A stretch of DNA of 63,003 nucleotides, filler included, from Chrysochromulina tobinii (Eukaryota): NCBI GenBank assembly GCA_001275005.1. It is 4 parts of 4 records of this genome, joined end to end, with 100 filler letters (N's around TTAATTAATTAA, not from the genome) between each part and the next. Parts side by side here need not be neighbours in the genome. Positions count along the whole stretch, not along the records: positions 1 to 22,836 come from JWZX01000815.1; 3 more parts are not named here. One strand, written 5' to 3'. Every line of letters begins with the position of its first letter. Positions within the stretch are counted from its first letter, which is position 1. Position numbers and translations under genes: made by a program. This document shows, piece by piece, positions 2,142 through 18,360 of the stretch. A model generated the notes under the pieces. The model did not search any database. It was not told where the DNA came from and saw only the letters and a program-made list of their open reading frames with translations.

Positions 2142-2276
2142 CAAGTCAAGGCAAGTCAAGTCAAATCACTTCGCAATCCGTCCCGCGACAACAGTTTATG
2201 AGTGTGTCGGAGAAGCTGCTCCCCCCCAGTCGCGTTTAGCAGGGGCGAACTTGACTTGACTTGTTTTAATTGACTT
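2142..2276. promoter_or_regulatory. Inverted (CAAGT)n/(ACTTG)n arrays in a divergent promoter
   Basis: CAAGTCAAGGCAAGTCAAGTCAA at 2142-2164 and ACTTGACTTGACTTG at 2249-2263, between head-to-head genes. Confidence 0.45.
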
Positions 2277-2376
2277 CGCGCCAAGCCGAGCCAAGACGAG
2301 CGCGCCACCGACAAAAGCGCTCGTGACCAGTATTTTGTCAGTGGTGACCGAGCGCGCCGAGTCCACCGCGGTTCCA

Positions 2377-5300
2377 ATGCAAGCAGCCGCGATAGTTGCG
2401 CCCGAGAAGAAGCGCCTGGACTCCTACGAGGGTGAGTACTGGCAGCCCATGGAAGTTGCGAAGCGCCAGCGCAAGGTGAAGACGATCCCCGACGCGATGT
2501 TGTCGAACGGCAAGGCGGGACTCTACCGCAGTGACTCTGACGCGACCGAAAATGGCGTAGAGCCGAAGTCGGCCTGGCGCAAGACCCCCACCGCCTTGAG
2601 CAAGCACACATACAGCTCCGAGCTCGAAGCGCACGCGCCCGACGACGCCCAAAAGCGCCTCGCCGAGCGCACCGACTCGATGGAGACGGTGGTCTACTCG
2701 CAGAAGAGCGCGCCGCGCGCGGTCTCCGACGAGGAGGTGGACGAGGACGAGGACGAGGAGGAGGAGGTGGTGGACAACGACGAGAACGGCCCGGCCCCGG
2801 AGGACGCCTCGCACGCGCTCTTGATGCTCGCTTTCGCCGGCGCCGCAGAGGCCTCGAGTGCCCCGCCGCCCTCGGCGGGAGATTCGGCTGGAGATCTGCC
2901 GGTGCCGATCTTTGCGAAGCGTCCGACGCCGAAGACGGGCGCGGGCGTGCTCATGGGCATGATCTCCAACCCGTGGGAGCCCGAGGAGGACGACGCCCTC
3001 AAGACAGCGATCGAGAAGCACGGCACGCGCTGGAAGAACGTGGCACGCCACGTGCTCGAGCAGACGGGCGCCGAGCGCACCGTCGCCATGTGCCGCAACC
3101 GGTACCTGCGCATCCAGGCGGGCCTGCGCCAGGCGGCGCTCAACCCGACGACCAACAACCGGTGCACCGCGTGCGGCCAGTTCAAAAAAGGGCACACGTG
3201 CCGCGGCGTCGATGCGTTCCACGCCACCTTCCTCGACAGCGCCAGGGCGGGGTCCATGCTGGGCGGCAGCAGCGGGCGCGCGCTCGCCGAGCTGCGCCGC
3301 GCCGTCGACGACCCCGAGTACGACCTCGCGAGCCTCGCCCCCCTGCGCCCGCTGCCCGAAGAGGGGCTGAGCGTCGTCCCGGGCGCCACCGACCAGAGCG
3401 CCGTCGTGAGCAGCGCGCCGGGAGGGCTGCAGTGCGTGGCCCAGAGCGCCGGCGGCCTCCTCTCGTCCCCCTCGTCCCGCTCCTCCTCCTCCTCGCCCTC
3501 GCCCACGGCGGGCGCGGCCGGCGCCGCCACCAACGCCTCCTCCTCCTCCACCTCGGCGCACCCGAGCGCCGTCCCGAGCGCCGACAACGCGCAGCACGAG
3601 GCGGCCAGCGTCATGCAGGGCATGTCCTCCATGATGCTCGCCGCGGCCGGTGCAGGTGCGCCCGCGCCCACCACGGCGCCCACCGCGGCGCCCACCGAGG
3701 GCAGCCCCCTACCCGCTGCGCTGCCCCGCCACGGAGCCGGTACCTCCCCCGGCGCGACGGCGCCCGGCTCGGCGCCCGGCATCTCGTTGAACCAGCAGCT
3801 CTACTGCCCGTGGGCGTTGAACGAGGACATGGCCCTCAAGGAGGCGATCCGCACCCACGGCACGCGCTGGGCGACCATCGCGGCACGCGTCGCCGAGCTC
3901 ACCGGCATCGAGCGCACCGTCGCCATGTGCCGCAACCGGTACCTGCGCATCCAGGCGGCCGCCCTCAAGGCCGAGAAGAACGCCGAGAAGAGCGCTGAAG
4001 GCCTCTCGCCCGGCGGCAGCCGCGCCCCCCTCACCCAGCGCGGCGCCGGCGCCCAGTACGGCGCGAGTGCCCTCCTCTCGCCCTCCGGTTCGGGCGCGGT
4101 CGGCGCCCAGCACGGCGCGGTCGGCGCCCAGAACGGCGCGGATGGCGCCCAGTACGGCGCGGGCGTGCGCTCGCCCGCCGGCAGCGGCCCGTCGCCTGCG
4201 GGACGACCTTGGGCGTCGCCATGCTCGGGCTCTGACGCATCGGGCGCGCCGGGCGCGTCGGGCGCGCCGGGCGCGTCGGGCGCGCCCGCGCCGGACGCGC
4301 CGTGCGCGCCGTGCGCCGACGAGGACTCGGACGACGCCCAGGACGACGCCCAGGACGACGCCCAGGACGGCGCCCAGGACGGCGCCCCAGGACGGCGCCG
4401 GCACGCCGCATGAGAGCTCGTCGGTCTCGACCCGCTCAGCGCCCTCGCCCAAGACGACGCCCTCGCCGCTCGCGTCGCCGCTGCCGCCGGCGATGGGCTC
4501 GGCGATGGGCACGCCCGATGAGGCGATGGCCCATCCCGGCGGCTTCCTACTCGCAGCCGCGCGGCACGAGGCGCACGTCGCCTCCCTCCGCGAGCTCCAC
4601 TCGCGCGAGCGCCGTGATGAGCGCCGGGACGAGCGCCGTGACGAGCGCGGGTCGCCGGCCGCCGGCGCCGTGTCGGGCGCTGGGAGCGTCGACGGGTCCG
4701 CCGCGCCCTACCCTTCACAGGCCGATCGCCCTTCACAGACGCGGCTGGGAATGCCGCCGCCCGTACGGGCGACCGACGCGGCCGAAGGGTCGCGGGCGAG
4801 CAAGGCGGCGCGGCAGGGGAACGTGCCCTCACCCTCATCGGTGCTCGCCCCGCTCGAGCATGCCACGCCCCTCGAGATGATTTCACACCTGGCTGCTTCA
4901 CACCTGGCCGCGCAGCATGCAATGGCCGACGCGCATGCGAGAGCAACGGGTGGCGCCGCCGCGCCCGCGAAGCGCGTGCCATCGACGACCACGCTCCCGC
5001 CGTGCCCGCTGTGCCACCGCACGTTCCTGCACAACAACTCGTCGGCGCGCAACAGCCACGTGGCCCGCTGTGCGAACGCCGCGAGCCTACCGGGCCAGAC
5101 GCCCAACGCAGCGCTTCCCGAGAACGACCCGGTCCATGCGCGCGGCGCCTTCCGGTGCGGAGAGGCCGACTGTGTGCACGTGTACGCCAACATCGACGGC
5201 CTGCGCCGGCACGCGCGCAAGACGGGGCACGCCTTCGAGCGCTTCCCGGAGCGCACCGTGAAGGCCCCCAGCCAGGAGCGCCCGGCACAGCGCCCGTTGG

Positions 5301-5953: not shown

Positions 5954-7442
5954 GCGCACGTCGAAGTGCGTCGCATGGCGGCGCTCGAGGCGGCGCGTCC
6001 CTCGAGGCGCACGCGCTGTCATGGGCGTTCGCTGTCCGAGGGAGTCGGCAAGGTCGGGCGGGACAGGGGAGCGAGGGACAGGGGAGAGGCCATCGGGGAG
6101 CAGCGTGGCCCGTCTATGCAGCGCATCAAGGGAGCATGGTGGGCGGGGTGCAGTATGGCGTGCAAGCCCCGGCGACACGGCGGCCTGCCAAGCCGATGAA
6201 GAGCGCCGACCGGGGGCACGATGGCTGCACTGGCGAGGCCACTTCCTCATGCCACTGGCGAGGCCATTGCCTCAGGCCACTGGCGAGGCCTCAGGCAGCA
6301 AGGGAGGGCAGTGGGCAGAGGGCAGGAAGGCCTACCGGAGCGCAGCAGCACGGTCTGGCGAACGTATGAACGTACGGCAACCCATGCAAGGTATGTGAAC
6401 ATCTCAGCGTGTGTGACGTGGCTGCGGGGCGAGGAACTGTGTGTGCCCGGCTGCGAGGAAAACAGTGGGAGAAGGGCGGCGGGGGCTCCCGCCTCACGGG
6501 GGCTGATATGAAACGTGTGCGCGTGGTGCGATGCCCGGAGCCCGCGCCACCGGAGACACTCGAGCGCGTGGCGGTGTGCAGACGTGCTGTCGACAGTTTG
6601 AAAAACAAGAAAGCAATCGAAATACACGTCCCGGCGGCGCCCGGCTCCAACGTGGTGAGTCGCTGCACGCCTTCGATGCACGCCTGCGCGCATGGTCGCT
6701 GGACACAACACCGGATTTACCGGTACGTCGAGTTCTTCACGACGAAGCGGCACCCCGCGTTACCGCCCCCCTGCTCTGCAGTGCGCGTGTCGGGGGGCGC
6801 CCTCGTCGCGTCTCTCACAAAAACGGGCCACCACACTAACGTCAACGCCCCTTCTTGACTTACAGACATGTTCACACCTTTCGCCGTTCCGCGCTTGGTG
6901 CACTGTCAATCATCGAGTCCTTCGCTCAACGTGCGTCGGTGCGATCGCTGCACGCGCACACCGCACTGCCTTCGCACACGGAATATATCGAGTCCGCTCA
7001 GGTAGGTACTTTCTTCCACGGTGCCCGCGGGCACACTTTTGTATCTCAGGGAGCACACATGCCCTTACCCCTATGCCTCCCTTTGTCTCACTCGCGACCG
7101 TGGGCTTTTTCGCGTGCCTTTCCGCAGTCGCGCGCCGCCGCCGACAAGTCGGCCTCCCTCCTCTCCGCCCCCGCGCGTTTCACCGCCCAGGTGACTGCCC
7201 AATCCTGAGACCCCGAGCTGGGCTGCCTCTCACAAGGGCATGCGACTCTCCGTTCGCCATGAGCTTCGGAGCCACACTCCGCACGCGATTCCCCTCATCC
7301 TCGCGGCACGCTGTTGGCTGTTGCTGTCTGCGTCGAGATCCTTCAAGCGCCCTTCGAGCTTTCAGCCGCTTGTGGTCCGATATCTCCATGCTGCCGAATA
7401 CACACGCCGCCTAAGCCTCTCTTCTTCTCTCTTGTTCGCAGG

Positions 7443-8905
7443 ATGATTGCGATGCTCATCAACTTTGTAGCGGAGAAGACCAACGCGAGTGCTATAAACT
7501 CGGTCGCCTTATCCCCGGACGGGACGAAAATTGTCTCGGGGTCGGACGACGGGACGATCAATGTCTGGGATTCGGGTGCGCTTTTGCCCTCAAATCGCCC
7601 ATCCTTGGCCACCATTGACACCTGCTGGCTTGTCTGGCAGGCGCGCTGGGGCTGTTGAGCGAGAAGACGAATGCGCATGCTTCTGGCATCATGGGCTCCA
7701 TTTCCTGCGTCCAGTTTTCCCCAGATGGATCGAAGATCGTAAGTTGCGGCATTACCGACAAGACGATCAAAGTCTGGGATTCGGGTTCGCCGCGAGCTCA
7801 AAATCGCCCCTCCTTGGCCAAAACTGACGCCTGCTGGCTTGTCTGGCTGGCAAGCTGGAGATGCTGAGCGAGAAGACGAACGCCCACAGCAGCTACGTCA
7901 TGTCGGTGGCGTTTTCCCCGGACGGGACCAAGATTGTGTCGGGATCTTACGACCAGACGATCAAAGTCTGGGATACAGGTGCGCCGCGAGCCCTCAAAAT
8001 CGCCCCTCCTTGGCCAAGACTGACGCCTGCTGGCTTGCCTGGCAGACAAACTGGAGCTACTGAGCGAGAAGACGAACGCCCACAGCGACCACATCAGGTC
8101 GGTGGCGTTTTCCCCGGACGGGACCAAGATCGTGTCGGGATCGACTGACAAGACGATCAAAGTCTGGGATACGGGTGCGCCGCCAGCTCAAAATCGCCCC
8201 TCCTTGGCCAAAACTAACGCTTGTTGGCTTGTCTGGCAGACAAACTGGAGCTGTTGAGCGAGAAGACGAACGCCCACAGCAGCAGCATCTTGTCGGTGGC
8301 GTTTTCTCCAGACGGGACCAAGATTGTGTCGGGATCGTGGGACAAGACGATCAAAGTCTGGGATTCAGGTGCGCCGGAGCCTCGAATCCCCCCTCCTTGG
8401 CCAAAACTGACGCTTGCTGGCTTGTCTGGCAGGCAAGCTGGAGATGCTGAGCGAGAAGACGGATGCGCACAGCAGCGGAATCACGTCAGTGGCCTTTTCC
8501 CCGGACGGGGCCAAGATCCTGTCGGGATCATTCGACAAGACGATCAAAGTCTGGGATTCTGGTTCGCTGTGCGAGCTCAAAATCGCCCCTCCTTGGCCAA
8601 AACTGATGCCTGCTGTGGCTTGTCTGCCAGGCGCGCTGGGGCTGCTGAGCGAGAAGACGAATGCCCACAGCCTCTGGATCCAGTCGGTCGCGTTTTCCCC
8701 GGATGGGACCAAGATTGTGTCCGGATCGCACGACAAGACGATCAAAGTCTGGGGCATGGTCAAGTGGTCTCGCAAAGATCATTTGTTGTTCAATGATACC
8801 ACCCAGCAATTCGTCTTGCTGCTGCTGTGGCTGAACAAATACAGCATGAAGTTCCCTGATGATGTGCTTGATCTACTCATCGAAGCTTGCTTGCAAAGCA
8901 AATAA
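7443..8905 (+). CDS. Seven-repeat WD40 protein, one repeat per exon; exons 7443-7575, 7641-7784, 7850-7978, 8046-8174, 8240-8368, 8433-8561, 8631-8905
   Basis: Each exon encodes AH....[22 protein letters not shown]. Six homologous 64-69 nt phase-1 introns separate them (five GT-AG, one with TG at the acceptor). Further 5' exons are possible. Confidence 0.85.
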
Positions 8906-9070
8906 GAGGTGGGGTGATGGCGGCTGGTAGGCGGCTGGATGTGTATCTGATCCACACGGCGCGCGCAGTGTCTAGAGAGTCAACGAGCAGTCGTATAGAT
9001 CGGCGCATGTACTAGTTTGTGGGGCGCAAGATCGCGACCGGCACAACGCGCGCGAAGGGTTCACATTGTA

Positions 9071-10529
9071 ATGGAGGGTCGTGAGAATTCTTGGGCAGCT
9101 TTACTGTCCGCGGCGGCCGTCTCGGGTGGGCTTCGTGCCATCGGGCTGTACGCCGCTTCGGACGCGCTGGTGCTGACCGAGGTACCGCTCGCCGTCTTCT
9201 TGACCTTCACGCTGGCCGCCTCCGCGGCGGTCTCGGCGGTGCTGCAAGGGCGGTCTCCTCAAGCAACCAAGGGACGCCGGGATGACCAGAGCCGCCGCGT
9301 GACCCTGCACGCCGTGGTGCTCGCCAGCGCAATGTGGCTCTTCTGCTACGGCTTGAAGCATTGCGGTCCTATACGCGCGATCCTCGTCGAGGCGTCACAG
9401 GTGGCGCTCATCACCGCGATCGCCTTGCCTCTGCGTGGGGCGGCAAGAAAGCGCGGGCGCGGTTCATGGCGTGGCGGGCTCGCGCTCGTGCTCGTCGCGC
9501 TCGTGCTGTTGCTCGGTACGCACGGTGCCCACCCGCACCGCGCGCGCCGCCTCAGCGAGGAGGGCGGGCCGGCTGCGGTCGCGCTGCCTTCGGAGGAAGC
9601 AGCGGGCGGGAATTTTGGACAGGTGCTGCTGCGGACTGAGCCGCTGCGGACTGAGCCGCCGGGTGCCTCCAAAATCAGCGCCCATTGGCCACGTCCGTTG
9701 GCCACGGATGAAGACGAGGTGGACGACGACGACGACGACGACGACGAGGACGAGCCCTCGGACGCGTCGCCGTGGGCGTGGTGGCCCACGCACATCCTGG
9801 GAGAGATGGCGCTCCTCATCGCGTCGCTCTTAATGGCCGTGCACCAGCGCGCGGCCCGCCCGCTCGCACGCGACATGGGTGGGCCGCTCCGCCTGTTTTG
9901 CGCCACGTCGGCGCGGGCGGCGCTCGTGTGTGCGGTGCCGGCGCTCTGGCAGCTTGCTCTCGCCCGCTACGGCGCCCGAAACGTAACCGTCGCCTCTTTA
10001 GGGTGGCGCTCGGATGGCGCCGTCTCGGGCGCCTCCGCCTCCGAGGGCGCCGTCTCGGGCGCCACTGCCGTCGCGGGCGCCGTCGCAGGCGCCACCGCTG
10101 TCTCGGGCGCCTCCTCCTTGGCGTGGCGTTCTCTTATCTTTGCGGTCCTCGGCCTCGCGGGCAGCCACTGGGCGCAGCTCGCGACCATCGCCCTGTCCGC
10201 CTCGCGCGCGGCCGTCGCCGCCCTCGCGACCTCATTCCTCACGGCCTGCACGCTCGACTGGTGGCGAGGGGAGCATGCAGCGCGGCCGCACACGTGGGTC
10301 GCGGCCCTGTGCTTGCTCGAGGGCACACGACGGCTGCTCGCCCTCGCGGAGCTCCTCGCCAAGAAGGACGACCTGCACCTCTTGCCGTACAGTGCCGTCC
10401 AGCTGCCGGTGCGCGGCTCGAGGAGTGCTCATCACGGCGCTTCGGACGACGCGGGCACGCCGAGGATTGCGGCCGATGTCTGCGGGGCGGTTGACGAGGG
10501 GACCGAGGACGAGGCTGAGGGCGATGGCA

Positions 10530-10578
<49 letters not shown>

Positions 10579-12013
10579 AGAGGAGGAGGTGGAGAAGGAG
10601 GATGGCCAGGGTGCTCATCTGTTGGGCGAGCGGCGACGCCAGAGCGGGCGGCGACGCCGAAGCGGGCGCAGGGACGGGCGCGGTGGGCTGATGGCCGGCT
10701 GCGTCGCTCTCTGGCGTGCTGCCACCGCCACCCGCTCCTCTCTCCAGTTGTCTGCGTATCTGTGCCTCACGCTGGTCTTCATGGGGATCGAGGCGACGGT
10801 TGGGCTCCTCTCGGGCTCCCTCACGCTCACGACCGACGCGGCGCACATGCTCATTGACTGCCTGGCGCTGCTGGTCGGGCTGTGGGGAGAAACGGCCGCG
10901 CACCGCCCCCCGAGCCGCTCACATCCCTTTGGGTACGGGCGGTATGAGACGCTCTGTGGGATGATCAACGCCGTGCTCCTGCTCCTGGTCGCCACGTCGG
11001 TGGCTTGCGAGGCCCTCCATCGACTCTGTGGAATGCTCCACGCCGATCTCTCTCATGAGGCCCTTCATCGGCTCGCTCCGCCGCCGCTGCTCACCGACAC
11101 GAGGTTGCTCCCCGTCGCCATCGGAGGGTTGGCCATCAACATCTTGGGGCTCGCCTACTTCCATGAGCACCTGCACGCTGCGCACAGTGGCGCCGATGCG
11201 TGTGGGCTCGACTGCGGCGGCGGCTGCGCCTTCGACAGCGGCTGGGTCGGTATCGGCAGTGCGGGCGGGCGCGCGAGCGGCAGACGGGCCGCCGGCCGCG
11301 GCGGTGGCGGGCGCCGTGCCGGGCTCTTCCCGGCGCGAAACGGCAGTACTGAATGGACTTCCAATGGCGGCGGCAAAGGCGGCGACGACGGCAAGGGCGG
11401 CGGCGATGGCGGCGGCAATGGCGGCAGCGGCGGCAGTCGTGGCGCCCGAAACGGCGCCGGCTGGATGAGTCGACTACTCGGCAGCAGCAGCAGCGGCGGC
11501 GGGAACGATAACATGCGGGGCGTCTTCCTGCACGTCCTCGCCGATACGATGGGCTCCGTCGCCGCCATCGCCTCCTCCTTCCTTGAGAGTCGGCTGCACT
11601 GGCACTGGGCTGATCCACTGTGCTCGCTCTTGGTGGCCGCATGCATCCTGGCGGTGGCGCTTCCATTGCTGCGGGACTCGTCCACGCTCCTGCTGCTGCG
11701 CCTGCCCGAAGAGCTTCGAGGCAGTGGGCTACGCCGCTGCCTCGCCGCCGTACGCGCCCTGCCTCATGTGCGCGAAGTGACCCATTGTCGCGTCTGGAGC
11801 CATACTCGTTCACGTGCCCTCGGCACGGTGTGCGTGCGCGCGGACGCCGGTGCGAGCGAGCTGCTCATCACGGCGCGCGTCTCGAGTACGATGCGAAGCT
11901 TTGGCGTGCATGCCACCGCCGTCGAGGTGCAGCTGGAGGACGCGGATGCTCCGGAAGCGCGTCAGGATGAGAGTTCGTTGGAGGACGTCCTCGCAGCTGC
12001 ATCTACCTCGTAG
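9071..12013 (+). CDS. CDF family zinc transporter, ZnT5/ZnT7(MSC2)-like, with N-terminal multi-TM extension
   Basis: Motifs DAAHMLIDC, HPFGYGRYE and NMRGVFLHVLADTMGSV, plus many hydrophobic segments. Confidence 0.9.
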
Positions 12014-12270: not shown

Positions 12271-13547
12271 TCAGAGCTGCCTCCCTGTAGAGACCCACGC
12301 CGGTAACGTAGGCGGCCGCTCGCGCCTCTCCTTGGCGACGAGGTACTCGAGGTCCTCCCGCTCCTCCGCCGTGACCACGAGCTCCTCCGCCTTCGCCCAC
12401 TCGCCCGTCTGCAAGTAGTACTGGAGCCACTCCTTGCGTGCAGCCTCCTCCTCCTCCTCGGAGAGCTCGGACTCGGACGCGTCGGCACCACCCAGGCTCG
12501 CGCCCGCCGCGCCCATGCCCTCGCCCGCGCCCGCCGTCTCGCGAGCTGTTCGAGGCGCATCGTGCGGCGCCACCCGATCTGCTCGATACGACGCGTTACC
12601 GATGCGAGATTGCGCCGCCGCTACCCATCCCGACCCCCGCCGAGGCTCCCCCTCGCGAGCCCCCCCCACCCCCGGATGCTCCGGGGACGAGGTCGGTACA
12701 CCTACGTGATCCGACGCTGGGCCGTAGGGCTCTCGATCGGAGTGCATGCTGCGTGCCTCTCTCCGTGCAGGCTGATGGCCTCCCTCATCAGGGCCGTGGC
12801 CGTCGGGCTCGGCGCGGCGTGGCGATGGCTTCTCCTCTGGCTGCTCGGGCTCAGCGCGGCCGCTCATCGGGTCGATCCGGGCTCCGGGCATCGGCTTACG
12901 CCGCCCGTACTCGTCGAGCACCTGAGGAGGGAGGCAAGCAGCACGCCATCAGAGATGCAACCAGCATGTGATCGGCGATGCCATCAGCATGCCATCAGAG
13001 CGCCGACCCGTCTCACCTTCAGATCTGGCTTGCGGTTGAACTCGATGTCGATCAGCCGTTCCTTGGTCATCTGGATGCGGTTGTAGTTGAGGCCGCCATA
13101 GATGACCTCAAAGACGAGGCGCTCCGGGTAAAGCACCCCGTTCAGCAACTTCTTGAGCAGCGGCGGATCCACCTTCTTGAGGCACTCGATCGACTGCTCG
13201 TAGTACGCCTTGGCCGCCTCGAACTCACCCATGCAGTGCAGGCAGAAGCCGATGTTGTGCACAAAGGTGCCGCGCGTGCCCGGGTCGGCGCACGACTTGG
13301 TCTTCTCCGACACGGCCAGCGCGTTCGTGAACAGGTTCAGCGCCTCCTCCCAGTTCTGCGCATAGCACTCCTTGCTCGCCTCCTTGAGCAGCTTCGCCTC
13401 GAGCGCCGTGAGCTCGCTCATGGCGACGTTGGCGCCAATCTGCGCGTGGTACTGCTGCACGCTGTCGAAGATCTTGGCCGACACCCGCTGAACGCCAACC
13501 TCCTCGTGCCACTCCTCGCGCGAGGAGGTTGGCGCGGCGGAGTACAT
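12271..13547 (-). CDS. TPR-containing protein; exons 13547-13017 and 12921-12271
   Basis: TPR-like helices (EEALNLFTNALAV, HNIGFCLHCMGEFEAAKAYYEQSI). A phase-0 GT-AG intron at 13016-12922 joins the two ORFs. Confidence 0.75.
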
Positions 13548-13728
13548 ATTGGACGCCTTAGCGCCCTCCCACCGCGACGCGATCGCTTTCCTCCACAAGT
13601 TCCTCCACATGAGAATCCGACAAGCGCTGTCTCTTTTTCGCGCGAACGTTCGGCGCGTCGTAATGTTTCGCGAGGCGTTCTCGCGAGCGCGCTTTGGCGC
13701 GCGCTCTTGCCGATCTTGGCGCGTCCGA

Positions 13729-16700
13729 ATGGACATTACGAAGTTCTTCACCAAGAAGCCGGCCGCCGCGGCGGCGAAGCCAGCCGCGGACGGCATCGAG
13801 CCTGTTGCGGGCGCGTCGGCCAAGGTCAAGCGCAAAGCCGAAGACGACGTTGCCAGCGCCAGCGCTGGCGATGCTGCCGCCGCCGCCGAGGCCGCCGAGG
13901 TCAAGAAGAAGGCGCTGCCCAGTGCAAATGGCCACACTCCCGTACCGCCCGTGCGCCAAAAAGTCGACCCTGCATCCTTCTTCGCCATGGGCAGCAGCGC
14001 GGCCAAGCCAATGCCCTCGTCCTCTGCCAAGGTTGAGCAGTCCGCAGCGCCGCCGCCCAAGGCTCCGGTGGCGGAGCCGAAGGCAGCGCCGAGCGAGCCG
14101 GAGCGCGTGAAGCGGCATCGTGATGATGACGAGAACGCCGGCCAGGCCGACGGTGCGGCGGCGGCCAAGCGGCCCGAGCACACCACCGCAGGCACGAGCA
14201 AGCAGAAAGGGCCGTCGGATAAGCGGCCGACGCCGCCGCCCGCGCGCGCAGCCCTCGACGCATCGTCCAGCCCGGCCGGAGACGGCAGTAGCCCGATCGC
14301 GCCGCTGAGCGCCGACTTCGCGCCGCCGCCGCCGAGCAAGTGGTACCCGGGCAAGAAGGACATCGCGCCGCCCAATAAGGGCAACAAGCGGGTGCCCATG
14401 GCGGCGCCCCAGTGCCTCGCAGGCCTCACGTTCGTGATCACGGGTACGATTGCCTCTGATGGCCTCTGATGGCCTCTGATGGCCTCTGATGGCCTCTGAG
14501 TGTGCCCTTCTTGAATGGCATGCTGATTGCCTCTAATGGCCTCTCTCCTCCTCAGGCACGTTGGACTCTCTCGAGCGTGAGGAAGCCGCCGCTCTCATTG
14601 AGCGCTTAGGTGGGCGCGTGACAGGCTCGGTGAGCAGCTACCTGCCTACGATTGCCTCTGATTGCCTCTGATTGCCTCTGATTGCCTCTGATTTCCTCTG
14701 ACGACAGGCTCGGTGGGCAGCCACCTGCTCCTGATTGCCTAGGATTGCCTAGGATTGCCTAGGATTGCCTCTGATGACAGGCTCGGTCAGCAGCAAGACG
14801 AGCTACCTGCCCCGTGGCTGCGACGAGCATGGCTCTGAGTGCATGCTAATGGCCTCCCTCATCAGTGACGAGCATGGCTCTGAGTGCATGCTAATGGCCT
14901 CCCTCATCAGTGACGAGCATGGCTCTGAGTGCATGCTAATGGCCTCCCTCATCAGGTGAGCAGCAAGACGAACTACCTGCTCCGTGGCTGTGACGAGAAT
15001 GGCCAACCAATGGAGTCGAGTAAAGTGACCAAGGCGCGCGAGCAAAAGGGATGCAAGGTGAGCGACGAGGAGGGCCTCTGATAACCTCTCTGAGTGCATG
15101 CTGATTGCCTCCCTCATTAGGTTAGCGACGAGGAGGGCCTCTGATAACCTCTCTGAGTGCATGCTGATTGCCTCCCTCATCAGGCCCGCCTCTCTGAGTG
15201 CCTCTTTGAGTGCATGCTGATTGGCTCCCTTATCAGGTGATCGATGAGGATGAGCTCTTCGACATCCTTCGCAAGACGGCGCCGCAGCCGCCAGAGTCCC
15301 CTGAGCCCGTGGAGGAGGAGGAGGAGGCGGAGGAGGTCGCGGCGCCACCTGCCGAGGTGCCGAGGCCCATGGGTGTGAACATGGGTGTGAAGCGCGAGGG
15401 CGGCGCCCTCTCCTCCACCTCCACCTCCACGGGCTCGGCGGCCGGTGCAGGCAGCAGAAGCGGCGCCGGCGCCGGCGCAAGCTCGAGCGCAAGCAGCAGC
15501 AAGGCGCCGGGAGGGCCAGTGCCCGCGCGCATGCCTCGCGAAGCCACGGGCGATGAAGCACCGCCCCTCTGGGCCGAAAAGTATCGGCCAACGGCCAAGA
15601 CGCACCTTGTGGGGAATGCCGATCAGGCGAGGCGACCCGCTGGCCTCTCTGATGGCATGCTGATTGGCTCGCTCATCAGGCGAAGCTATCTGCTGGCCTC
15701 TCTGAGGGCATGCTGATTGGCTCGCTCATCAGGCGAAGCTACCTGCTGGCCTCTCTAATGGCATGCTGATGGCCTCCCTCATCAGGCGAAGCTATCTGCT
15801 GGCCTCTCTGATGGCATGCTGATGGCCTCCCTCATCAGGCGAAGCTACCTGCTGGCCTCTCTGAGGGCATGCTGATGGCCTCCCTCATCAGGTGAAGCGA
15901 CTCGAAGCGTGGCTGGGCTCATGGCACCGTGAGAACGCAGCGCTCGAGGCGGCGGCGGCGGCGAGGGAGAAGGCGCCCAAGGGGCAAGCGGCATCGACCT
16001 TCCACAAGGCCGCCCTCCTCTCAGGTGACCCCGCCCTGCATGCAAGTGCCCACCACGGCGCCGTTGGGCGTGTGCGTACGCTCACCACGGCGCTCACCCT
16101 CTTCCCCACAGGCCCCCCCGGGGTGGGCAAGACCTCAACGGCAAAGGTGCTCCTCCAGGCGCTCAACTACGACGTGGTCGAGCTCAACGCGTCCGACACG
16201 CGCTCGCAGAAGCAGCTGCAGGCCTTCGCCGGCGACATGGTGGGCAACACGTCGATTGCGGACTTTGCCGACGGCAAGGTGGGAGGCCAGCAGAGGAAGC
16301 TCGCCCTCATCATGTGGCTGCTCACCCTGATGACCTCTGATTGCCTCCCTCATCAGGTGGGAGGCAAGCAAAGGAAGCTCGCCCTCATCATGGACGAGTG
16401 CGATGGCATGAGCGCGGGCGACCGCGGCGGCATGATGGCGCTCCTTGGCGTCATCAAGGCCTCGAAGATGCCCATCATCTGCATCTGCAACGATCGGCAG
16501 TCTGCAAAGGTCAACACCCTCGATCTGATGACCTTTGATGACATCTGATGACCTCTGATGACCTCTGATGACCTCTGATGACCTCTGATGACCGCTGATG
16601 ACCTCATCAGGTCAAATCTCTCGCCAATCACGCTCTCGATCTGCGCTTCCGCCGCCCGGCGGCACTCGAAATCAAGGCCGCGCTCCGTCGCGTCGTCGCG

Positions 16701-18360
16701 AACGAAGGGTACAAGCTCGGCGAGGAGACGCTCGATGACCTCTGATGACCTCTGATGACGTCTGATTGCCTCCTTCATCAGGTACAAGCTCGGCGAGGAG
16801 ACGCTCGATAAGATCGCTGAGGCATGCAATGCGGTGAGTCTCTCTGATGGCCTCTGATGGCCTCTGATGGCCTCTGATGACCTCTGATGGCCTCTGATGG
16901 CCTCTGATGACCTCTGACTGCACTCGAAAAGATCGCTGAGGCATGCAAAGCGGTGGGTCCTGTTTTCGATCGATTGGGTTCTCCTGTGGGTCCAGCATGC
17001 AAGCGCTCAACACGGCGCCCGTGCCCCCTCTCCCCACACAGGACATTCGTCAGATGCTCAATCTCCTCCAGATCTGGCGCCCGGCGGCCGGCGCGCCCGG
17101 CGCGGGCATGTCGGCGGGCGACGTGACGAAGAACATGCAGAGCGCCTTCAAGGATGTCGACGTCGGCCCTTTCGACGTCGCCGACAAGTTCTTCCGCGAG
17201 CCGAATGCGGACTTCGACCGACGGCTGCGCCACTATTTCGTGGATACCTCGATGACGCCACTGCTCGTGTACGAGAACTACCTGTCCGTCTCGCCGCCGC
17301 CGCCGCCCGGCCTGCCGCCCGCACAGCTGCAGGCCTGGCTGCTGCACCGCGCGACGCTCGCCTCGGATTTCATTGCATGCTCGGATGTGGTCGGTGCTCG
17401 CATTCTGAAAGAGCAGCAGTGGGGCCTCGCGCCGCTGCACGGCGCGCTCTCGTGCTTGGCGCCCGGCTACATGATGCAGGGCAACCTCGGCCGCCTCCAA
17501 TTCCCACAGTGGCTCGGAAGGAACTCGACCGGTAACTCGAAGCGCCAACGGACCCTTCGCGCGCTCGGCGCATGCAAGTTGTGCTCACCACGGCGCCGGA
17601 CGCCCTCCCCACAGGTACGAAGCGCCAACGGCTCCTTCGCGAGCTGACAGGCCACCTGTCCGCGCACGTCTCGGGCTCGAAGGAAGAGGTGGGCTGATGC
17701 CGTTGATTGCCGCTGATTGCCTTTGATTGCCTTTGATTGCACGTCTCGGGCTCGAAGGAAGAGGTGGGCTGAGTGCTTTTGCGGGCCACTGATTGCCTTT
17801 GATTGCCTCTGATGCACTCTGATGGCTGAGCGCTCTTGAGTGCCGCTGATTACCGTTGATTGCCATTGATTGCCATGGATTGATGTGCACTGCAGGTGCG
17901 CAATAGCTACGTGCCCGCACTGCGCCCGCGGCTGCTGCGCCCGCTCGCCGAGCGCGGTACCGACGGTGTGGAAGAGGTGCTCGAGTCTCTGGATGCGTAT
18001 GGGATCACCAAGGACGACTTCGACACGATCTTCGAGCTTGAGCTCTTGGTGGGGGGGGCGGCGAAGCCGGCGCTCGCGCAGATCCCCACAGCCGCCAAGT
18101 CCGCCTTGACGCGCAAGTATAACCAGTCGCACCAGCAGTTTGAGAAGAAGAAGGGGGGGGGCGGCGCTGGCGGCGCTGGCGGTCTGATGCGTTTCACCGA
18201 CGATGGCGTCGAGGATGAAGCGGTGGAGGATGAGGGCGGCGACGCCGAAGAGGGCGGCGAGGAGGGCGACGAGGACGAGGACGTGAAGCCGGTGGCCGCC
18301 AAAAAGGGCGCCGCCTCGGCGGCCTCTGCCAAAGGCAAAGGCAAGGCCAAGGCCAAGTGA
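13729..18360 (+). CDS. RFC1: Replication factor C subunit 1; 12 exons, introns 14444-14555, 14630-14955, 15058-15236, 15627-15891 (GC donor), 16025-16111, 16279-16356, 16510-16610, 16709-16781, 16834-17041, 17532-17614, 17689-17895
   Basis: BRCT (CLAGLTFVITGTLDSLER), WAEKYRP, Walker A GPPGVGKT, ELNASDTRS, LIMDECDGM, ICICNDR, DIRQ and C-terminal FPQWLG. The frame is restored by the listed introns. Confidence 0.95.
14444..17895 (+). repeat. Cluster of repeat-built introns ((CTGATGRCCT)n ... CTCCCTCATCAG) containing duplicated exon fragments
   Basis: Decamer arrays and exon copies are visible in most RFC1 introns. Confidence 0.85.

Follow-up and report, generated by a model that had tools for sequence, protein, structure and literature searches.

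Proteins with variable repeats of a comparable kind are known among receptors and candidate receptors of fungi and brown algae. In the HNWD/NWD family of NOD-like receptors (NLRs) of Podospora (het-e, het-d, het-r), selection is reported at repeat positions 10, 11, 12, 14, 30, 32 and 39 (PMC12222747), and the HNWD paralogues share identical repeats, for which ectopic conversion has been proposed (PMC12222747; PMC13449251). The LRR-ROCO and NB-ARC-TPR candidate receptors of Ectocarpus are described as carrying one repeat per exon of the same phase, with diversifying selection and with intra- and intergenic recombination (PMC3341825; PMC11378527). Here we analyse a WD40 gene at positions 7443 to 8907 of a stretch of 63,003 nucleotides (nt) of Chrysochromulina tobinii DNA (assembly GCA_001275005.1, this part from JWZX01000815.1), which is referred to as the window throughout. 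On balance the evidence favours the view that the gene encodes an effector-less protein of seven WD40 repeats which functions as a variable sensor for foreign or non-self proteins, and whose repeats are exchanged between loci and with NLRs of the NACHT-WD40 type. Almost nothing is known about how bloom-forming unicellular algae recognise viruses and parasites.

Structure of the WD40 gene

The gene consists of seven WD40 repeats, each in its own exon, and six homologous introns, and encodes a product of 356 amino acids (aa) that starts nine codons ahead of the first repeat motif. The gene model confirmed the arrangement given in a preliminary description of the window, namely internal exons of 129 nt, one exon of 144 nt and phase 1-1 throughout. 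The features are as follows (L numbers designate loci of the gene family introduced below).

6923..7441, + strand: family-shared upstream region (promoter/5' untranslated region, intron-like segments), non-coding; 79-89% identity in the best 14 of 46 matching loci
7443..7575, + strand: exon 1, with the start codon and the first WD40 repeat; ATG context kept across class A loci
7576..7640, + strand: intron 1, GT-AG, of the family type; a 131-nt tract identical to L072 begins in its 3' part
7641..7784, + strand: exon 2, rare 144-nt marker repeat, recurring in L072 and L056
7785..7849, + strand: intron 2, GT-TG, non-canonical acceptor; inside a 159-nt tract identical to intron 6/exon 7 of L072
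7850..7978, + strand: exon 3, WD40 repeat 3, 129 nt
7979..8045, + strand: intron 3
8046..8174, + strand: exon 4, WD40 repeat 4, 129 nt
8175..8239, + strand: intron 4
8240..8368, + strand: exon 5, WD40 repeat 5, 129 nt; PF00400 E=8e-14
8369..8432, + strand: intron 5; a 64-nt GT..AG joint occurs here in RNA contigs, which may stem from any family member
8433..8561, + strand: exon 6, WD40 repeat 6, 129 nt
8562..8630, + strand: intron 6
8631..8752, + strand: exon 7, first part, WD40 repeat 7; PF00400 E=1e-10; modelled strands at residues 16-21, 27-32 and 37-41
8753..8907, + strand: exon 7, second part, class A three-helix C-terminal tail and stop; helices 7-12, 15-32 and 36-49

The introns measure 65, 65, 67, 65, 64 and 69 nt and lie in phase 1 throughout. 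Identity is 84-94% among introns 2-6 and 74-80% between these and intron 1, in keeping with the homology of all six, and exons 3-7 share 78-88% DNA identity while exons 1 and 2 are further diverged. Together with the homologous introns, a tandem array with a period of ~194 detected by Tandem Repeats Finder supports the exon plus intron of ~195 nt as the duplicated module. The intron motif was matched five times in the window with 0.00 matches expected by chance, and a profile search of the 63-kb window recovered six copies, all of them in the WD40 gene. A WD40 sequence repeat comprises strand d of one blade plus strands a-b-c of the next blade, so that each exon corresponds to one sequence repeat and not to one structural blade as previously stated. 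The scaffold, earlier called nearly invariant, is conserved (nonsynonymous differences, pN, 0.043 vs synonymous differences, pS, 0.259), but it is not invariant, whereas the variable motifs named in the same account are all present.

Two features had been overlooked, the C-terminal tail of ~50 aa and the end of intron 2, which reads TG instead of AG and thus departs from the GGCAG ending ascribed to all six introns. No in-frame AG was found in the 45 nt downstream of its end, and retention of the intron runs into a stop codon. Since the TG end recurs in L092, a 100% identical assembly of the window locus, and in intron 6 of L072/L034, it is not a private error. This copy may be partly crippled by its TG acceptor and would then give rise to a six-repeat product by skipping of exon 3. 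Two counterparts of the 144-nt repeat of exon 2 were found, one differing by 2 nt (position 5 of L072) and one by 9 nt (position 9 of the NLR gene L056).

No NACHT domain was detected in the gene or in 11 scanned frames around it, and ROC-COR and NB-ARC signalling domains are absent from its WD40 repeats and tail. Nor is there a HET or other effector domain N-terminal to the repeats, the upstream DNA being non-coding with numerous indels among loci and a ragged 5' edge; a Pfam scan of the frame overlapping this region gave no match, and an in-frame coding extension of the gene was ruled out by the indels among paralogues. A search for terminal inverted repeats as mobile-element ends found none, folding of the introns indicated no conserved structure (z -0.6 to 1.6), and neither the introns of the window gene (64-69 nt) nor the family introns parsed with a 50-100 nt filter contain spare or inverted repeat exons.

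Variable sites and repeat exchange in a dispersed family

Copy number was estimated from metagenome loci, for which contigs were scanned with the intron motif. The scan yielded at least 127 stretches, stored as 124 loci. Due to the 99-100% identity of their shared loci, 78 of them from 21 sources, the window included, were pooled as one apparent strain (culture-type); they represent 39 distinct arrays, possibly with alleles or fragments among them (Chao1 about 46). The window gene belongs to a dispersed family with about 40 arrays per apparent strain, as the suggested search with the intron and exon unit was meant to reveal. Among the distinct family introns 281 of 284 are GT-AG, with a span of 59-84 nt when parsed with a 50-100 nt filter, and 232 of 265 distinct internal exons measure 129 nt; four exons were flagged as out of frame, some of them through parsing error. 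The assignment to a haptophyte family was substantiated by a C. tobinii protein with three repeats and the same tail (88% identity).

The family is transcribed and spliced, as indicated by RNA contigs with spliced exon-to-exon ends: four runs gave 209-936 pieces on the region at 85% likeness, all of them short contigs whose joints are not assignable to a single gene. At the family level the gene is neither single-copy nor invariant nor silent. One C. tobinii gene model (KOO20820.1, P0011) consists of three repeats and the tail fused to a UDP-N-acetylglucosamine diphosphorylase. Since many class A stops sit in donor-like sequence, past which the RNA contigs continue unspliced, this fusion is likely a gene-calling error and an example of how gene callers fragment or fuse members of the family.

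Three classes of genes carry the repeat unit. Class A, to which the window gene belongs, combines a short start, the repeats and the helical tail without NACHT or effector domain, and has six introns in 20 of 23 arrays and four or five in the remaining three. In class B the same exons, with 3 to 11 family introns, follow a long exon with matches to NPHP3_N (E=2e-29), NACHT and APAF1_C. Class C is a single U-box-dynamin-ARM fusion from one assembly only (L006:432-4310, +), in which the array is inserted in frame in the ARM repeats.

Behind the NACHT core, genes of the main class B type have a region with a match to Tas1, a (p)ppApp synthetase (E=1.6e-4). This RelA/SpoT-like nucleotidyltransferase region lies inside the STAND helical part (L007:2200-2560, +; also in L015, L017, L037 and L056); a Pfam scan of the insert gave no hit, and four motifs that we take to be catalytic are present in all eight main-type class B records spanning it. 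The insert is a candidate for a sensor-triggered alarmone synthetase. A second, different NACHT type (E=0.0016) precedes the same repeat unit in L047:3-3785 (+), whose N-terminus appeared HET-like by eye and found no support in Pfam or the PDB. Other observations in the family concern a partial duplication of the NLR helical region joined via a family-intron copy (L035:1923-1988) and a recurrent 315-nt exon which adds an insert of ~62 aa inside a repeat (L058:4046-4360, L055 and P0007).

Variation in the repeats is concentrated at five codons. Among the 232 exons of 129 nt, codons 14, 15, 17, 33 and 35 have entropies of 3.1, 3.9, 3.4, 3.5 and 2.2 bits with 14-19 residues each, whereas the other 37 codons do not exceed 1.6 bits, and 198 distinct five-residue combinations occur. 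According to the strands of the exon 7 model, the structure prediction called for earlier, the sites are located at and immediately ahead of the beginning of strand a as well as in the b-c loop, which by WD40 topology is the top face of the propeller. Shifted by a constant 3 positions, their spacing equals that of HNWD positions 11, 12, 14, 30 and 32 in a presumed register; the equivalents of positions 10 and 39 are weakly variable in the haptophyte family (0.5 and 1.0 bits). With a shared synonymous rate, the ratio of nonsynonymous to synonymous rates (omega) amounts to 1.5, 3, 1.5, 3 and 1 at the five sites compared with 0.15 for the scaffold.

The tail is predicted to form three helices (predicted local distance difference test, pLDDT, 78). 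It is under purifying selection (pN/pS 0.29 among 21 tails) and also occurs in divergent relatives, with identities as low as 38%. Of the 18 hits returned when 1.84 billion representatives were searched with a profile, 17 are tail-bearing, most of these with adjacent WD40 residues, and one is of low complexity. Searches for the tail family in Pfam, PDB sequences and the Atlas gave no assignment, nor did Foldseek on the PDB and viral models (best viral E=1.1), and none of the viral contigs searched encodes the tail. With VIA-align the best Z was 5.1; F-box and SOCS box were not in the top 50, an absence that does not exclude these folds. The last helix fits a hydrophobic-Pro-x-x-hydrophobic motif that we presume to be F-box/Cul2-box-like and for which no profile or fold match was obtained. 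The middle of the tail fits a presumably LisH-like pattern, from which a possible role in dimerisation was considered.

Several lines of evidence indicate that repeats move between loci. In a comparison of 148 repeats from 26 loci the mean distance per 120 nt was 18.6 within a locus and 19.5 between loci, and nine repeat pairs differed by at most 3 nt, eight of them at different positions and four across classes. Exact tracts of 90-232 nt were found 14 times in 10 of 378 locus pairs (28 loci), never at the same position and in six cases across classes. The window gene and L072 share 7788-7946 (159 nt, including the TG acceptor; position 7 of L072) and 7620-7750 (131 nt; position 5), while the longest tract shared among the window gene's own repeats is at most 36 nt. 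Of the tract ends counted, 19 of 28 lie within exons; this figure overstates exonic breakpoints since an exact tract stops at the first later mutation. On a poorly supported FastTree tree of the repeats the classes A and B do not cluster (37 label changes vs 40.6 shuffled, p=0.11), and the position label behaves likewise (102 vs 100 changes). Linkage drops from r2 0.15 to 0.02 within 30 nt (permutation p=0.001); among third positions it is near the baseline, and recurrent mutation may add to the decay.

Orthologous loci were paired by unique flanks for a comparison of strains. Repeats were replaced in five of eight ortholog pairs involving divergent assemblies, which bears out the expectation that repeats vary between strains. 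The flank of the downstream cation-efflux gene (95.9% over 1569 nt) identified L013 as the orthologue of the window gene in a divergent strain. Its last three repeats differ from those of the window at 18, 26 and 19 of 120 nt, with four of the five variable residues changed in each, and one of these three is identical over 120 nt (0/120) to repeat 5 of the NLR gene L007. Similarly, L003 and L025 show no difference in the 295 nt of tail and untranslated region and 17 in the 120 nt of the adjacent repeat. The pair L027/L043 (88% flank) may represent paralogues.

These patterns suggest that the exon-intron unit is the ancestral module and that the present diversity results from patchwork exchange across the family. 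They point to conversion between genes, often inside exons, over whole-exon shuffling alone. Of the unequal recombination proposed at the outset, exchange of repeats stands; it takes place between different loci and often ends inside exons, and the steady number of seven repeats in class A is unlike the outcome of simple unequal crossing-over.

A putative variable sensor and its rival explanations

In the proposed mechanism repeats would be exchanged by ectopic gene conversion, which may be eased by the homologous introns since these keep about 195 nt of continuous similarity and any swap in frame. The five sites would together make up the binding surface on top of a seven-bladed propeller, the ligands of which may be parasite or other non-self proteins. 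In the absence of any nucleotide-binding or effector domain the conserved helical tail might connect the sensor to an invariable partner. A tentative first guess for this partner is a ubiquitin ligase of the cullin type, by which the bound protein would be removed.

Several points weigh against a variable sensor. When the synonymous rate is left free at each site, significance is limited to codon 15 (p=0.014; one of five), and the ratio in 25 close exon pairs, which comprise just 11 changes, is 1.09 (p=0.47). The selection tests build on a poorly resolved tree (a like tree has support at three of 141 nodes), and omega can be inflated by recombination. Repeats were kept in three of the eight ortholog pairs, and the locus label on the repeat tree retains some signal (113 changes vs 125 shuffled, minimum 25, p=0.001). 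All data are short-read assemblies, in which repeats can be misjoined, and the contigs of the divergent strain are single. Expression of the window copy itself is represented by one exact RNA piece of 72 nt from the variable part of exon 7 at a depth of 4, which may be DNA carry-over. The putative immunity role is drawn from analogy and from repeats shared with NLR-type genes, and the ubiquitin-ligase step, doubtful in itself, from the presumed F-box/Cul2-box-like motif.

A wider reading, for which we hold out only a limited prospect, sees the WD40 exon-intron cassettes as an interchangeable stock spread over the genome, which would serve as a portable and recombining module for antigen binding. 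This module would be plugged into several outputs, namely the alarmone-synthetase NLR, the second NACHT type, the U-box-dynamin protein and an effector-less adaptor sending foreign proteins to destruction.

The five sites might instead be merely unconstrained surface, and conversion a neutral consequence of the recent amplification of a family whose role is that of an ordinary scaffold. The mostly non-significant site-specific and close-pair tests are in line with this, as are the raised synonymous rates at the five codons. However, first and second codon positions there are more diverse (1.1-2.0 bits) than fourfold scaffold sites (0.65 bits), omega reaches about 3 at two sites against the background, other surface sites remain constrained, and the spacing coincides with that of the selected HNWD sites, so that relaxed constraint seems unlikely. 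The predicted excess of nonsynonymous change was significant at four of five sites with the shared synonymous rate and at one with rates free per site, and diversifying selection at the five codons is probable but not proven.

Slightly less likely still, class A genes may mainly supply the NLR genes with donor repeats, as a reservoir similar to silent cassettes in antigenic variation, their own proteins mattering little. Exchange does cross the classes, and the TG acceptor of the window copy and of L072 as well as a frameshift in L078 would suit such a role. A mere reservoir would, however, hardly account for the retention of seven repeats in 20 of 23 class A arrays, the purifying selection on the tail, the conserved start context and upstream region, and the tail-bearing contigs in the RNA runs.

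It appears improbable that the diversity arises mainly within the life of a cell by skipping of same-phase exons or somatic rearrangement, as proposed for the brown algal receptors. Skipping would keep the frame because all exons are phase 1-1, and RNA contigs contain joints between non-adjacent exon types, which may be ordinary joints of paralogues. On the other hand, independent assemblies of replicate cultures agree on the array at each locus with 0-1 nt difference per exon, the introns of 64-69 nt leave no spare exons, and a closed propeller poorly tolerates the loss of a blade. That the sharing across loci is a short-read assembly artefact of repeats is very improbable: the loci all stem from short-read metagenome assemblies and tracts of over 200 nt can exceed a read, but separate assemblies agree on the arrays (L072/L034, L007/L061, L016/L082 and window/L091-L092), and confusion by the assembler requires the tract at both loci.

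On the wider reading given above, the family would amount to an inherited immune repertoire of a protist, driven by conversion and including a new class of sensors without nucleotide-binding domain. Effector-less sensors with repeats shared with NLRs would be a new wiring. With about 40 loci and five variable sites in each repeat, the family is a candidate repertoire that can be counted. It varies from strain to strain and can be followed in samples from the field, and it would extend diversification of the HNWD type to a distant eukaryotic lineage. Introns and synonymous sites, lacking in the fungal repeats, mark the exchanged tracts, so that the mechanism behind alike yet hypervariable repeats becomes directly mappable.

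With regard to the surroundings, a cation-efflux gene of the zinc transporter type follows directly 3' of the WD40 gene (8999-12013, +), and a frame with Myb domains (2260-4413, +) is its upstream neighbour. Further frames of the window contain two ubiquitin-like domains (1018-2145, -) and TPR repeats (12987-14594, -). At 14400-17900 and elsewhere a single type of 10-nt tandem repeat is frequent and probably intronic.

Comparison with known systems

The window gene belongs to neither the HNWD/NLR nor the brown algal receptor group since it contains no NACHT, HET, ROC or NB-ARC domain, and a literature search covering few subscription papers found no description of such a haptophyte family.

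With the brown algal receptors it shares one repeat per same-phase exon, seen family-wide in the uniform length of most internal exons (232/265 of 129 nt). It differs from them in its repeats (WD40, not LRR or TPR), intron phase (1, not 2) and haptophyte host, in short homologous introns without spare or inverted exons, in tracts that often end inside exons and in having no GTPase or NB-ARC domain.

WD40 adaptors of cullin ligases such as WSB1/2 (SOCS box) and the F-box-WD40 proteins combine a propeller with a helical module of ~50 aa, which is C-terminal in WSB. The window gene resembles them in the predicted propeller, the C-terminal helical module and the presumed last-helix motif, whereas no profile or fold match of the tail to F-box or SOCS box was obtained. 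We know of no cullin WD40 adaptor that shuffles hypervariable repeats.

RelA_SpoT-NACHT-WD40 is listed as an NLR architecture of fungi (PMC4986451). Class B1 relatives, though not the window gene, are similar in having NACHT, a RelA/SpoT-like region and WD40 repeats, but their RelA/SpoT-like region is located after the NACHT core in the helical region and not N-terminally.

The window gene departs from the Podospora HNWD genes in lacking both HET and NACHT domains and in its C-terminal helical tail without assigned family. Each haptophyte repeat occupies its own exon with a homologous intron, while the word 'intron' does not occur in the accessible text on the fungal genes (PMC12222747). The number of repeats in class A is nearly fixed at seven, with about 40 arrays per apparent strain. 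The preliminary view of an HNWD-like candidate receptor therefore holds for the spacing of the sites and for the repeats shared with NACHT-WD40 NLRs, and fails for the domain layout of the window gene itself. The 78-88% DNA identity of exons 3-7 is close to the internal repeat identity of 80-100% regarded as HNWD-like, and five of the seven selected positions correspond by spacing in the presumed register. As in the Podospora genes (PMC12222747; PMC13449251), the array is made up of highly conserved WD40 repeats in which a few equally spaced positions are hypervariable, and the NACHT-WD40 layout of HNWD recurs in the class B relatives.
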